DNA of 64,000 nucleotides, from NCBI GenBank assembly GCA_951406725.2, contig OX597814.1, forward strand, positions 2,232,001 to 2,296,000, read 5' to 3'. Every line of letters starts with the position of its first letter. Positions within the stretch are counted from its first letter, which is position 1. The translations under genes were made by a program, and so were the position numbers. The DNA comes from Octopus vulgaris (taxonomy: Eukaryota). A model generated the notes under the pieces. It was not told the DNA's origin, made no database searches, and was given only the letters and a program-made list of their open reading frames with translations. Below, in pieces: positions 4,084-62,220 of the stretch.

Positions 4084-4503
<420 letters not shown>

Positions 4504-9960: not shown

Positions 9961-10119
9961 GTAAGTAGTAATGATGGATATTAAAAATTGCACGATCGTT
10001 GTGTGTAGAGGTTGATTGTTAGTCTTACGTTCTGGGTCGGATTCTTCAGTCACTGTACTTGACCTTCCTCCGAATGAAATTTTACAAAGAACGTACCAAC
10101 ATTTCAGTGCGACCAATTA

Positions 10120-10484
10120 TGGAAGCACTCCGTCGGTTACGACGACGAGGGTTCCGGTTGATCCGAATCAACGGAACAGCCTGCTCGTGAATTTAACGTG
10201 TAAGTGGCTGAGCACTCCACAGACACGTGTATCCTTAACGTAGTTCTCGGGGATATTCAGTGTGACACAGAGAGTGACAAGGCCGGCCCTTTGAAATACA
10301 GGTACAACAGAAACAGGAAGTAAGAGTGAGAGAAAGTTGTGGTGAAAGAGTACAGCAGGGATCACCACCATCCCCTGCCGGAGCTTCGTGGAGCTTTAGG
10401 TGTTTTCGCTCAGTAAACACTCACAACGCCCGGTCTGGGAATCGAAACCGCGATCCTATGACCGCGAGTCCGCTGCCCTAACCA
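10120..10484 (-). mobile_element. SINE B (tRNA-Arg-like head), slightly 5'-truncated, 15-bp TSD
   Basis: TSD CAGTGCGACCAATTA at 10105-10119 and 10485-10499; B-box GTTTCGATTCC; further copies at 36.3, 58.3 and 59.1 kb. Confidence 0.92.
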
Positions 10485-10865
10485 CAGTGCGACCAATTAA
10501 ATTGCCGATTAATATATTCTACCAATCCCCGATATTTGTCCAAGAGTAGAAATGAATTTCATTAAAGCTACAAAAAGATTGTAACAGAAACATTTAACGT
10601 TTGGAGAAAAAATCTGTCAGAAATAGTAGCTAAACCTCCCCCATTTCACACTAACTGTACGACTAGCAGGAAAACACAGTGGATAATGTAGTCCTAGATG
10701 TACCAGGGATATTTTTAAAGGTTGTCTACTTGTGATTGAATTGCCGTTTATCATTTTCTGGACAAAGATTGATGTCGGCTAAAAAGGACATGAAAATATG
10801 GTTGTATAGAATAAAATGGACAGGAGGGAAATAAAGCATGTATACAATACGTAGAAAGAAATACC

Positions 10866-11048
10866 TACTTCTTTACTGCCCACAAGGGGCTACATATGGA
10901 GGGGACAAACAAGGACAGACAAACGGATTAAGTCGATTATATCGACCCCAGTGCATAACTGGTACTTATTTAATCGATCCCGAAAGGATAAAAGGCAAAT
11001 TCGACCTCGGCAGAATTTGAACTCAGAATGCAGCGGCGGGCGAATTAC
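10866..11048 (-). mobile_element. Headless unit-length monomer of SINE A with 16-bp TSD
   Basis: TSD CGTAGAAAGAAATACC at 10850-10865 and 11049-11064; insert equals one concatemer unit. Confidence 0.88.
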
Positions 11049-11339
11049 CGTAGAAAGAAATACCGCGGCCCACGATTATTTGGTGACATCTTATATCAAG
11101 AGTAAGTGGGATTACTGGAGCAAAAGTGATGGTGTACAAGGTATATTTAGAGTAATGGGTTTGTCCTAGGCTTTTACAATTGCCCATGTGTTGTAGGTTT
11201 GATCGATTATACAGGATCTAAAGCCGTACAACCATCGATTTGTATCTTATACACCCACTCGTCATTCTGTACGGTTTGTATTTCAGATTTTATGTAGAAA
11301 AAAAAATATGCAACTCTGACCAGGCACTTCATTCCTCCA

Positions 11340-26706: not shown

Positions 26707-27321
26707 TTTTGCTGCTGTCAGGGTTGAGCTACGTTAAGTAGGATGAAGGTCAATCTGGACATGACCTGCTCCTTTTAGAATAAACTGGTTTTATCTATTT
26801 TTTTCCGTTTTGTTTCGTTTTTCAGTTCCACTTAACGAATTATCATTGATTCTGTAAAGGCATCGAGCTGGCAGAGACGTTAGCAAGGCGGGTGGAATGC
26901 GTAGCCGTATTTCGTCTGCCGTTACGTTCTGAGTTCAAATTCCGCCGAGGTCGACTTTGACTTTCATCCTTTCGGGATCGATTAAATAAGTACCAGTTAC
27001 GCACTGGGGTCGATGTAATCGACTTAATCACTTTGTCTGTCCTTGTTTGTCCCCTCTATGTTTAGCCCCTTCTGGTTAATAAAGAAATAGGAATTATTAT
27101 TGCTTCTGTACCCGTCGTTTCTTTAAAACCGTAGAGTATGATTTTGCTGCTGTCAGGGTTGAGCTACCTTAAGTAGGATGAAGGTCAATCTGGACACGAC
27201 CTGCTCCTTTTAGAATAAACTGGTTTTATCTATTTTTGCCGTTTTGTTTCGTTTTACAGTCCCGCTTAACGAATTATCATTTCTGTACCCGTCATTTCTT
27301 TAAAATAGTAGAGTATGATTT
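26707..27321. repeat. ~180-bp tandem duplication; first copy carries a SINE A insertion
   Basis: TTTTGCTGCTGTCAGGGTTGAGCTAC...GTAGAGTATGATTT at 26707 and 27142. Confidence 0.9.
26857..27090 (+). mobile_element. SINE A, long-tail monomer with ~20-bp TSD
   Basis: TSD GAATTATCATTGATTCTGTA (26837-26856) / GAATTATTATTGCTTCTGTA (27091-27110); ends AAAGAAATAG. Confidence 0.92.
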
Positions 27322-31745: not shown

Positions 31746-31782
31746 CCTTTTTAATACTCGACGCTAATCATCTCGGTACAGA

Positions 31783-32005
31783 TGGCAGAATCGTTAGCAC
31801 GTCGGACGAAATGCTTATCGGTATTTCATCTGCCGTTACGTTCTGAGTTCAAATTCCGCCGAGGTCGACTTTTGCCTTTTATCCTTTCGGGGTCGATTAA
31901 ATAAGTACCAGTTACGCACTGAGGTCGATATAATCGACTTAATCCGTTTGTCTGTCCTTGTTTGACCTCTCTGTGTTTAGCCCCTTGTGGGTAGTAAAGA
32001 AATAG
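31783..32005 (+). mobile_element. SINE A, long-tail monomer
   Basis: GGCAGAATCGTTAGCAC head through GTAAAGAAATAG end. Confidence 0.9.
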
Positions 32006-34781: not shown

Positions 34782-35549
34782 GACACTCCGTTGGTTACGA
34801 CGACGAGGGTTTCCAGTTGATTTGATCTGATCAACGGAACAGCCTGCTCGTGAAATTAAACGTGCAAGTGGCTGAGTACGCCGCAGACCCGCGTGCCCTT
34901 AATGTAGTTCTCAGGGAGATTCAGCATGACACAGAATGTGACATGGTTGGCCTTTTCTAATACAAGTATTATAATATAAGGCGGCGAGCTGGCAGAAACG
35001 TTAGCACGCCGGGCGAAATGCATAGCCGTATTTCGTCTGCCGTTACGTTCTGAGTTCAAATTCCGCCGAGGTCGACTTTGCCTTTCATCCTTTCGAGGTC
35101 GATTAGATAAGTACCAGTTACGCATTGGGGGGTCGATGTAATCGACTTAAACCCTTTGTCTGTGCTTGTTTGTCCTCTCTATGTTTAGCCTTTTGTGGGT
35201 AATAAAGAAATAGGCATTTCGTCTGCCGTTACGTTCTGAGTTCAAATTCCGCCGAGGTCAACTTTGCCTTTCATCCTTTCAGGGTAGATTAAATAAGTAC
35301 CAGTTACGCACTAGGGTGGATTACATCGACGTAATCCTTTTGTCTGTCCTTGTTTGTCGCATCTACGTTTAGCCCCCTGTGGGCATTAAAGACATAAATA
35401 CAAGTATTACTCATTTTTGCCAGCTGAGTGCACTGGAGCACTGTGAAGGAAACTGTCTTGCTCAGTGACTCAAAGCGCCGCCGAGAATGGAACTCGTGAC
35501 ATTACAATCGTGAGCCGAATACGCTATCCATTAAGCCACGAGTCCTCAC
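34782..35549 (-). mobile_element. SINE B-related element, interrupted by a SINE A dimer
   Basis: Tail matches 10120ff; the sequence resumes after the TSD at 35397-35409. Confidence 0.75.
34979..35396 (+). mobile_element. SINE A head-to-tail dimer with 13-bp TSD
   Basis: Junction AAAGAAATAG|GCATTTCGTCTGCC at 35213/35214; TSD AATACAAGTATTA at 34959-34971 and 35397-35409. Confidence 0.92.
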
Positions 35550-39030: not shown

Positions 39031-39224
39031 TACCGGAGTAAACACATAAATGTGAAACAAGGTGGAAAAAAGCGAGTACTCAAATACCAGTGGTAGAGTA
39101 ATATGCTTTATCTAAAGCAGCAGAAAATTCAACAAAACCTGTTACTCTGACTTTCCCGTTGCCGTTGAATGGGAAAGTCAGAGTAACAGGTTTTGTTGAA
39201 TTTTCTGCTGCTTTAGATAAAGTA
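39031..39224. mobile_element. (TA)n-flanked element ending in a perfect 52-bp inverted repeat (Penelope-like inverted terminus)
   Basis: Arms 39106-39157 and 39171-39222 are exact reverse complements; 13-nt loop. Confidence 0.7.
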
Positions 39225-39231
39225 TATATAT

Positions 39232-40625
39232 AAACTAATCACCTTCCTTGAAGAAAATGACTTGCTGCCTGACACTCAACATGGTTTCCGACCAGGAAGA
39301 AGCTGCTTAACTCAGCTCCTACAACACTATGACTGGGTGTTGAAACGACTGCTCAACCATTCAAATGTGGAAGTCATATATCTCGACTTTGCAAAGGCCT
39401 TTGATAAAGTCGATCATGGAATGCTATGTCACAAACTGCGTGATCATGGCATAGTTGGAAAATTGGGAGAGTGGCTTCATGACTTTCTGAAGGATAGAAG
39501 TCAGGTGGTAGTAGCCACTTCCACTAACACGCAAATAGTGAGCGGTGTTCCGCAGGGCACTGTTTTGGGACCACTACTGTTCATAATGGCCCTCTCAGAC
39601 ATACCCTCAGCCACTCAGAGAGCCACGATCACAAGTTATGCAGATGATACAAAAGTTTCACAAGCAATACAGAACCCTGAAGACATGAAGCACCTGCAAT
39701 GTGAGCTGGACAAAATATACAAGTGGGCTGAAAAGAATAGCATGCATTTCAATGCTGAAAAGTTTCAAGCTCTATGCTATCAGCACGCAAAACTAAATGC
39801 AATACCCAATAAATACACTGGACCTGGAGGGACTGCAATCCCAGAGGCACAATCAGTGCGAGACCTGGGTATTTACATGAGTGATGATGCAACCTTTCAT
39901 GTGCATGTTGCTAAATTGGCAATGAAATCTAGGCGGCTGACCGGATGGATTCTTAGAACCTTCAGAACAAGAGACCAGGAAACCATGATGGTCCTCTGGA
40001 GGACACTTGTCCTAAGCCACTTTGACTATTGGTCTCAGCTATGGTCACCATCCAGTGTCAAGTTAATCACAGAACTTGAGGCGATCCAACGAAGCTACAC
40101 GAAAAAGATAGCCTCTGTGCAGCATATAAGCTATTCGGAAAGACTCAAGAGATTGAGACTCTATTCCTTAGAGCGTAGGCGAGAAAGATATGCCATAATA
40201 TACATCTGGAAGATCCTAGAAGGACTTGTCCCAAACTTTGGCATCGATAGTTACACAAATGCCAGAACTGGACGTCACTGCATAGTGCCAAGGACTCCAA
40301 ATTTGCCATCAAGATGTAGGACAAGATACTGTGATAGCCTGGGCTTCCGAGGCCCACGGCTCTTCAATATCCTCCCGAAGAACCTAAGAGACCTGTATGG
40401 GGTGGATGCAGATGTCTTTAAAATGAAACTGGATCTCTTCTTGTCAGGTATCCCAGATGAACCAACTTCACGGCAGGAGGTGCAGATGAGGGCAGCTGCA
40501 TCGAACTCTCTCATGCACCAAATGGCAATTGCTAAAAAGCATTCGTGAAGTAAAATCATGTAGCAACACCAAATGGCGGTGCCCCAGCATGGCCACAGCT
40601 AGTGAGCTGAAACTAGATAAATAAA
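39232..40625 (+). mobile_element. 5'-truncated CR1-group LINE with an uninterrupted RT/C-terminal ORF (39262-40548)
   Basis: QHGFRPGRSCLTQL, YLDFAKAFDKVDH, SGVPQGTVLGPLLF, YADDTK, RDLGI, YSLERRRERY, PDEP...AASNSL; (TAAA)n tail. Confidence 0.96.
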
Positions 40626-49229: not shown

Positions 49230-49845
49230 TTTATTTATTTCTTGACTGCTCACTAGGGGCTCAACATTAAAGAGGACAAACAAGGACAGAAAAAGGGATC
49301 ACGTCGATTACATCTACTCCAGTGCGTAACTGATACTTATTTAATCGACCCGGAAAGGATGAAAGGCAACGTCGATTTCGACGGAATTTGAACTCAGAAC
49401 GTAACGGTAGCTGAAATACCGCTAAGTATTTCGCCCGGCGTGCTACCGATTCTGCCAAAATAATCTTTTCTACTCTAGGCACAAAGCCTGAAATTTTTGG
49501 GGAAGGGGAAAGGCAGTGACATCGACCCCAGTACTTAACTGGTATTTAATTCATAAACCCCGAAAGGATGAAAGGCAAGTTGACCTCGACAGAATTTGAA
49601 CTCGTACAAAATACTTATTTCTTTACTACCCACAAGGGGCTAAACACAGATAGGACAAACAAGGACAGACAAACGGATTAAGTCGATTATATTGATCCCA
49701 GTGTGTAACTGGTACTTAATTTATCGACCCCGAAAGATTGAAAGGCAAAGTCGACCTCGGCGGAATTTGAACTCAAAACGTAACGGCGGACGAAATACCG
49801 CTAAGCATTTCACTCGGCGTGCTAACGTTTCTGCCAGCACGCCGC
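49230..49845 (-). mobile_element. Cluster of three SINE A units
   Basis: Long-tail unit, short-tail unit, long-tail unit; AAATAC|TTATTTC junction at 49614/49615. Confidence 0.88.
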
Positions 49846-50022
49846 TCTTTTCAAATTCGTAATTGAGACACGTATATAAGAGATGTGTGTTCAAATGTTA
49901 TTTGTTCGTAAAACACATATCGCTGATTTTGTGAAGGATATCATAAGTTTCCTTAAAAAGTATAGACATCTATTTTTCATTGAATCCAACTATTAATATT
50001 TAAAGAGAATATATGAATAATG

Positions 50023-51970: not shown

Positions 51971-52390
51971 ATATTTATTTCTTTATTGCCCACAGGGGGC
52001 TAAACATAGAGGGGACAAAGAAGGCCAGACAATGGGATTAAGTCGATTACATCGACTCCAGTGTGTAACTGGTACTTATTTAATCGACCCCGAAAGGATG
52101 AAAGGCAAAGTTAACCTCGGTGGAATTTGAACTCAGAACCTAGCGGCAGACGAAATACCTATTTCTTTACTACCCACAAGGGGTTAAACACAGAGGGAAC
52201 AAACAAGGACAGACAAACGGATTGAGTCGGTTATATCGACCCCAGTGCGTAACTGGTACTTATTTAATCGACCCCGAAAGAATGAAAGGCAAAGTTGAAC
52301 TTGGCGGAATTTGGACTCACAACGTAACCGCAGACGAAATACCGCTAAGCATTTCACCCAGCGTACTAACGTTTCTACCATCTCGCCGCC
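51971..52390 (-). mobile_element. SINE A head-to-tail dimer
   Basis: GACGAAATAC|CTATTTCTTT junction at 52158/52159; ACTGTTATATT repeated on both flanks. Confidence 0.92.
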
Positions 52391-52578
52391 CTTTTCTGGC
52401 CTGTATTTATTTCTTTATTGCCGCCTTTGCTACTGTTATATTATTCCTCCCTGACCGTTGTCTTCTGCCTCGAATCACATGTAACCGTATTGCGCCATCT
52501 TTTCTCTTTTTTTCTTTTTATCAGAAACATCTTCCCTCTGTTGCTCCCCTCCTCTCTCTCTTCCTATGTCTGACTGTC

Positions 52579-61642: not shown

Positions 61643-62220
61643 GTCGAAATACCTATTTCTTTATTGCACACAAGGGGCTAAACACAGAGAGAACAAACAA
61701 GGACAGACACACGGATTAAGTCGATTCCATCGACCCCAGTGCGTGACTGGTACTTAATTTATCGACCGCGGAAGGATGGAAGGCAAAGTCGACCTCGGCG
61801 GAATTTGAACTCAGAACATAAAGACAGATGATAATACCAGTTTCTTTACTACCCACAAGTGCCTAAACACAGAGAGGACAAACAATGCCAGACAAACGGA
61901 TTAAGTCAATTACATCGACCCCGAAAGGATGAAAGGCAAAGTCGACCTAGGTGGAAATTGAACTCAGAACGTAACGGCAGACGAAATACCTATTTCTTTA
62001 CTACCCACAAAGGGCTAAACACAGATAGGACAAACAAGGCCAGACAAACGGATAGAGTCAATTACATCGACCCCAGTGCGTAACTAGTACTTATTTAATC
62101 GACCCCGAAAGGATGAAAGGCAAAGTCGGCCTCGGCGGAATTTGAACTCAAAACGTAACGGCAGACGAAATACGGCAACGCTATTCGCCCGGCGTGCTAA
62201 CGTTTCTGCCAGCTCGCCGC
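61643..62220 (-). mobile_element. SINE A trimer plus the start of a fourth unit
   Basis: Junctions at 61652/3, 61837/8 and 61989/90; a single 5' head at ~62172-62220. Confidence 0.93.

Follow-up and report, generated by a model that had tools for sequence, protein, structure and literature searches.

Internal priming of L1 and Alu was reportedly described by Srikanta in 2009, and the tRNA-derived octopus SINEs OK, OR1 and OR2 are said to go back to work by Ohshima and Okada in 1994. In internal priming, pairing of the nicked target takes place within the L1 or Alu RNA (PMC4859970). The other target strand comes into play in twin priming (PMC2912911) and in the so-called double TPRT, where annealing of the cDNA to the 5' target ends synthesis (PMC4245944); 5' inversions are few in elements mobilised in trans (PMC2912911). 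SINE multimers have been described for Dip and B2, those of Dip being composed of full-length units, and it is treated as an open question whether B2 dimers stem from insertion into older copies or from multimeric templates (PMC8466645). The SINE-derived satellites of squamates (sSats) are long, homogenised and subtelomeric, with a longer terminal unit that reaches the SINE end (PMC10702118), and non-LTR retrozymes are short tandem units of low GC content, which require a hammerhead and are proposed to spread by small circular RNAs (PMC7229834). Active octopus SINE families are mostly unclassified, and a structure like that of the family treated here (family A) is not described in the part of the paper covered (PMC13282606). 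The SINE comparison also took in parts of PMC4758252, PMC5804259, PMC4824008 and PMC3531059. By title and opening of the abstract, no paper on family A concatemers came up in the openly accessible literature, and the mechanism literature, covered to the same depth, gave no paper on family A. Two short family motifs compared with one MetaSINE supplement gave no relevant match.

The copy analysed here is a headless SINE unit inside an exact TSD, located in a window of 64 kb (the whole stretch of DNA that was analysed). As in the internal priming of L1 and Alu, the target would have paired inside the RNA and given a 3'-truncated copy; unlike there, the pairing word is the mixed-sequence junction of a multimer, not an A-run, and the product resembles a complete unit. 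As in twin priming and double TPRT, the second target strand would have paired with RNA or cDNA and ended first-strand synthesis, whereas the copy has no inverted segment and the pairing site is a repeated palindromic junction. Tandem SINE units are common to Dip, B2 and family A, the inner units of the latter being headless, unlike those of Dip. The four arrays of the window, each consisting of a head and headless units, recall the tandem partial units and single longer terminal unit of the sSats; unlike these, they are dispersed, limited to 2–3 units, ordered by type and, within the window only, unhomogenised (0.129 vs 0.128, see below). The retrozyme model comes closest to the idea of a circular template, and its tandem units of a few hundred bases are matched by the 184-nt period of family A. 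However, neither a hammerhead nor another Rfam ribozyme was found in the family A arrays, and they have a putatively tRNA-like head with A and B boxes.

Materials and methods

Seven family A insertions were compared, namely four arrays (at 35k, 49k, 52k and 62k), two insertions of a head with one unit (27k and 32k) and the focal copy. Contigs of four runs were aligned to the head, the first unit and 27 nt of the second unit of the 35k array (positions 34955–35240). Runs X1, X13 and X15 belong to organisms A, E and F, respectively, and X12 is an RNA run by guess only. Contig counts are lower bounds, and contig depth is no copy number. A and B box motifs were located by sequence patterns. The probability of the match to the inverse tail was obtained by fixing the first 8 letters of the TSD and drawing random continuations (100,000 and 200,000 draws). 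Duplex energies, which were calculated with RNA-RNA parameters and mixed several helices, were excluded from the evidence.

Results

The focal copy and its TSD

The exact unit-length monomer described in the initial annotation was confirmed at both ends, as a 183-nt insert flanked by two exact copies of a 16-nt TSD (Table 1). The TSD sequence is CGTAGAAAGAAATACC; the identity of the two copies ends with the 16-mer at both sides, and there is no third occurrence in the 64-kb window. The insert aligns end to end with the family units at 84–89% identity (lower for a unit with a 32-nt deletion) and differs from the window majority at 18 of 183 positions. Its 5' end corresponds to unit position 1, the first letters carrying one substitution (GTAATTCG in place of GTATTTCG), and the insert is collinear from there on, with no inverted 5' segment. 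At unit position 171 it has a C, the letter of the last-unit type. The start at the junction nucleotide, as claimed earlier, is the same as in five tail-to-unit junctions and one array end (6/6 in the window). The description of the copy as promoter-less holds for the A box, which is missing together with the head, and fails for the B box, which is intact. We take the family to be a putative octopus SINE.

On the 3' side, the tail AAAGAAGTA is followed by GGTATTTC, the same 8 letters that a next unit would supply, so the TSD does continue across the junction as had been proposed. At any one site, this 8-mer is expected with a probability of 1.9e-5. The word is the likely priming site. A perfect TSD around a unit 10% off the majority has a chance of 0.03–0.07 if all change took place after insertion, and the combination fits the copying of an already diverged downstream unit. 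Another SINE, tRNA-like, on the minus strand and from a different family, occupies positions 10105–10499 at a distance of 350 nt from the focal copy and has an exact 15-nt TSD (10105–10119 and 10485–10499).

Table 1. Features of the focal insertion and of the family A insertions compared (positions in the window)
Feature	Position	Strand	Remark
Headless SINE unit (focal copy)	10866..11048	-	183 nt, unit position 1 to tail end
5' copy of the 16-nt TSD	11049..11064	-	identical to the 3' copy
3' copy of the 16-nt TSD	10850..10865	-	identical to the 5' copy
Intact B box of the focal copy	11013..11024	-	
8-nt word GGTATTTC	10858..10865	-	junction G and start of next unit
TSD part matching the reverse complement of the inner-unit tail	11050..11062	-	also 10851–10863
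10-nt target match GCGGTATTTC to the family head/unit boundary	11057..11066	-	
Head and one unit ending AAATAG	26857..27090	+	20-nt TSD with 2 mismatches
Clipped head and one unit ending AAATAG	31780..32005	+	
Array, head+unit+unit	34978..35396	+	within a 13-nt TSD
Array, head + A unit + B-type unit + clipped head + A unit	49236..49846	-	one TSD
Array, head+unit+unit	51976..52394	-	
Array, head and three units	61646..62220	-	ending with a further GGTATTTCG

Family A and its arrays

In family A, a 50-nt head, in which an A-box motif lies, is followed by a 183-nt unit; the latter contains the B box, a central portion and, as its tail, a sequence ending AAAGAAATA. In tandem, the units have a period of 184 nt. 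The family heads show both A and B box motifs, as opposed to the B box only in the focal copy. In terms of the SINE definition, the family is short, interspersed and present in at least 100 copies (28 BLAST rows of relatives in the 64-kb window; at least 404,223 contigs of X1), with an internal Pol III promoter and a variable TSD. SINEBase defines a tRNA-derived SINE by an identity of 60% or more to a tRNA across 60 nt; as indirect indicators of tRNA likeness, ARAGORN found 0 tRNA genes and Rfam no tRNA match. A 22-nt family motif had 0 loci in metagenome and viral contigs, and its single match in a bacterial genome (n = 1), with no SINE around it, was dismissed as chance.

All four arrays begin with a head, and three of the four lie within a TSD. 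TSDs were located for five of the seven insertions, those other than the focal one being 11–20 nt long; for the insertion at 31780–32005 a TSD was looked for and none was found. That of the 49k array has 16 nt with 3 mismatches, and the junction between its A unit and B-type unit is the same as the others. All five tail-to-unit junctions, as well as the end of the 62k array, fall on one nucleotide and read tail, purine, GTATTT. Two types of 3' end occur. In the terminal type (35k, 49k and 52k), AAATA is followed by a TSD starting AAT(A) in 3/3 cases, and this sharing of AAT(A) between the tail and the TSD start points to pairing of tail and target as a habit of the family. In the junction type (27k, 32k, 62k and the focal copy), the insertion runs 1 to 9 letters into the junction GGTATTTCGTCTG. 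The extra G after the tail at 26.9k is missing from the 5' TSD copy and so came from the template.

Unit position 171 is C in 4/4 last A units and in 0/5 inner units (Fisher p = 0.008). The third unit of the 62k array has a junction on either side together with C at 171, and would be the kind of template from which the focal copy was made. The distance between units is the same within arrays (0.129, 6 pairs) as between arrays (0.128, 30 pairs). Last units are mutually more divergent than first units, 0.146 vs 0.099, a difference reached by 5 of 70 permutations and thus non-significant.

Several further observations concern the make-up of these elements. Copies of a B family (at 4500, 17798, 18180 and others) share with family A the head as well as the initial 120 nt of the unit, end in a different tail, often next to long (TTA)n tracts, and form several B-B tandems; the array at 49236–49846 joins two related families in one concatemer within one TSD. 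The 35k array (34880–35480) appears, by eye, to lie inside a copy of the SINE family found at 10.1–10.5k. The tails GGCAGTAAAG and GGCAATAAAG (34978–35400 and 10866–10885) resemble the A-box region of the head, GGCAGAAACG, and the A-box-like tail is located about 40 nt upstream of the B box of the next unit; for inner units, such a tail might serve in place of an A box. In the 52k array, the 5' TSD is separated from the head by a scrap (52392–52442) in which the opening letters of a head are joined to the final 17 nt of a last-unit tail; it looks like a template jump during 5' joining. An open frame of 443 aa at 39217–40548 contains a reverse transcriptase domain (PF00078, E 6e-24) and is likely a LINE fragment; no BLAST match of the family tail was found near it.

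Junctions in contigs

Junctions of the tail with GGTATTTC occur in large numbers in this lineage, and organism F has few of them. Contig depth across the junction, relative to that over the tail, amounted to about 0.73 in X1, 0.59 in X12, 0.20 in X13 and 0.006 in X15. At least 1,427 contigs of X1 have a loose end before the unit start, the consensus of which is the tail (agreement 0.55, median length 16), whereas AT-rich letters and medians of 251–255 characterise the loose parts found at the true 5' end. Because of the median length of 16 nt, headless copies with unique flanks account for less than half of the X1 loose ends at the unit start. The X15 consensus at this position is a head variant, and for X13 the unit start is absent among the top six rows listed. 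The sharp peak of headless 5' ends, which the initial annotation expected, is consequently absent as a majority signal in the contigs, while a minor peak may exist. Within the window, six headless starts have non-SINE flanks; only the focal copy starts at position 1, the other five being scattered over positions 5, 16, 45, 56 and 86.

In organism F, the tails rejoin at 34978 and 34994–34995 instead of the unit start, so that the re-entry points differ between lineages. At least 27 of its contigs link the tail to 35043 via unlisted letters, perhaps the same junction followed by a variant unit. A large peak of loose ends at 35043 was set aside as an artefact of subfamily mismatch, its consensus being the head plus a variant unit start.

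Reading of the template past the tail into GGTATTTC is supported by three more insertions, at 26.9k, 31.8k and 61.6k, which end inside the junction. With head+unit+unit loci being abundant, the multimeric half of the proposed "circular or multimeric" template stands and the circular half is unsupported: a multimeric template is already the common case, and no circle is needed. The exclusion of a linear Pol III transcript is likewise unsupported, since linear multimers started at the head would give the same read-through. No T run of 4 or more shared by the family was found within the arrays, and linear read-through multimers are therefore to be expected. TATTT was a moderate Pol III terminator in mammalian tests, ending 42–50% of transcripts (PMC8466645), and being present at the junction it could even stop a linear transcript there.

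Target matches at both ends

Aligned with the reverse complement of the inner-unit tail, the TSD agrees in 13 of 14 columns (P about 0.004 once the first 8 letters are set; 0.4% of the random continuations scored as well). The fit depends on the type of tail, with scores of 11 for the inner type, 9 for the last-unit type and 7 for the tail of the focal copy itself, as expected if the overhang paired with a preceding inner unit. The junction is a palindrome, GAAATA-GG-TATTTC, which is the reason why the TSD matches the inverse tail too; unit start and tail have a 6-nt inverted repeat in common, and the two target matches are for this reason not fully independent. The last G of the 5' TSD copy makes a 1-nt microhomology with a junction template and one of 2 nt (CG) with a head template. 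Neither a junction word at the start nor a match to the inverse tail is seen in any other TSD found in the window. The 10-mer GCGGTATTTC is present twice more (2920 and 28611) outside recognisable family copies, with about 0.1 expected by composition. A decayed SINE fragment as the target was also considered and rejected, the flanks giving no support (20 alignments, lowest P 0.066).

Discussion

The focal copy probably, although by no means certainly, arose by LINE-type target-primed reverse transcription of an inner unit within a linear head+unit+unit RNA, the junction word likely fixing both of its ends on a target in which this word is present too. Transcription by Pol III would begin in a multimer locus, at its A-box head, and pass through the units. 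The nicked target strand ending GAAATACC would pair with GGUAUUUC just after a tail and prime synthesis there, that is, by internal priming, while the freed 16-nt overhang of the top strand would pair with the tail of the previous unit in the same RNA; alternatively, the end of the cDNA might be captured by the same 8-nt word on the overhang. Synthesis would halt at the previous junction, after exactly one unit, and the ends would be joined via a 1-nt overlap. Such an overlap follows from the pairing at the tail, which leaves the junction G free, so that the cDNA ends one base past the unit start. The last G of the overhang is mismatched to the inner-type tail, which would block its extension, and hence no inversion would be made. 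Arrays would grow when the same priming takes place on a nicked older SINE copy, adding units upstream and keeping the junction fixed. Growth by homology priming fits the ordered unit types and the A-to-B junction; inheritance from a multimer master would explain the order of types just as well. The focal copy would work like internal priming combined with an aborted twin priming on a linear multimer, and is neither a retrozyme nor a 5'-inverted copy. It shares with twin priming a top strand complementary to an internal RNA site (the 13/14 match to the inner-unit tail) and departs from it in that no 5' segment is inverted. The scarcity of 5' inversions in trans-mobilised elements weakens the proposed pairing of the overhang, and the evidence base for fixation of both ends is one event, chosen for its odd look.

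A circular unit would offer the same two pairings as a linear multimer, and the exact unit length, together with the single junction nucleotide in 6/6 cases, agrees with a unit that was cut from the RNA at a hairpin loop before GUAUUUC, perhaps circularised and copied once round, the arrays then being formed by rolling or by template jumps. The unit start coincides with the 3' edge of the loop in a 12-bp hairpin of the head (z about -2.1) and lies beside a loop in the junction palindrome as well. The scrap of tail and head 5' of the 52k array suggests template jumps, and in the run guessed to be RNA at least 608 tail-type loose ends at the unit start stand against 131+136 at the head flank, a ratio that linear transcripts predict likewise. 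Nevertheless, we regard this origin as very unlikely. Copying round one circle should give like units in one array, whereas units are as distant within arrays as between them (0.129 and 0.128), unit types follow a fixed order and the 49k array mixes two families. Moreover, all four arrays start with a head, with 0 circularly permuted insertions among the 28 BLAST rows; the stability of the junction hairpin does not exceed that of shuffled sequences (z -0.4 and +0.2); and organism F has the junction only rarely (a depth of 0.006 relative to the tail), its tails re-entering at 34978 and 34994–34995. A ribozyme was found neither by Rfam (none at gathering thresholds in the window, none relevant at E up to 10 in two arrays) nor as a core motif on either strand of the seven elements. 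The version that dispenses with it, in which the SINE RNA is cut in an anticodon-like loop and at the palindromic junction, and the 184-nt unit is ligated to a circle and retrotransposed by a LINE, is highly improbable in our estimate. If junction words recombined to release a one-unit circle of DNA, and a staggered break captured it, the exact unit length would be accounted for, and arrays with repeated junction words do exist; yet the clean 16-nt TSD, within the family size range of 11–20 nt, points to the retrotransposition machinery, and a circle recombining with the 8-nt word would leave a duplication of 8 rather than 16 nt, which renders this reading extremely improbable.

The simplest account combines plain internal priming at the 3' side, or an RNA of head, unit and junction ended at TATTT, with ordinary 5' truncation at the head/unit boundary, the match to the inverse tail being due to chance. 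The 5' end can also be explained by the 2-nt CG overlap with a head template of the GCTTAGCG type, the position of the unit start at the loop edge of the 12-bp head hairpin suits a halt there, the other five headless starts are scattered, and in the mammalian tests TATTT ended 42–50% of transcripts (PMC8466645). This account has to assume two coincidences, the exact boundary (about 1%, estimated from a 230-nt element) and the 13/14 match (0.4%), and an identical TATTT stands at the start of the first unit; we consider it rather unlikely. More doubtful still is a monomer RNA ending at the tail, with GGTATTTC supplied by the target only and insertions steered to GC^GGTATTTC sites, either by pairing of the tail to top strands containing TATTTC or by endonuclease preference, which would also make the array junctions. 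The cut position GC^GG is the one required to form the junction in an old head, the 10-nt and 13/14 target matches speak for it, and last units do tend to greater divergence. However, AAT or GAATT is the start of all four other TSDs found, and they lack such a word; the focal end is of the junction type, whereas the terminal type reads AAATA and then AAT(A); the non-target G after the tail at 26.9k argues that the template entered the junction; and the 5' end of the focal copy is left unexplained. Taken over all of these, the multimeric template is a sound conclusion, and a circle is unnecessary and disfavoured.

Each step of the preferred reading, priming and end fixation on a linear multimeric RNA, is already known, and it is the substrate that is unusual; new here is the additional match between the TSD and the reverse-complemented family tail. 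The relevance is chiefly for specialists on retroposons; a circular intermediate would be of wider import but is weakly supported. A practical warning is that 3'-truncated copies of multimers may pass for complete monomers. If the preferred reading is true, the focal copy records, in a natural setting, how the two strands of a target paired with a single multimeric SINE RNA, and it suggests how dispersed arrays of a head and headless units may spread a fixed junction without duplication at the DNA level. This bears on the origin of SINE multimers as raised for B2 dimers (PMC8466645), and family A makes the question testable by genome assembly.
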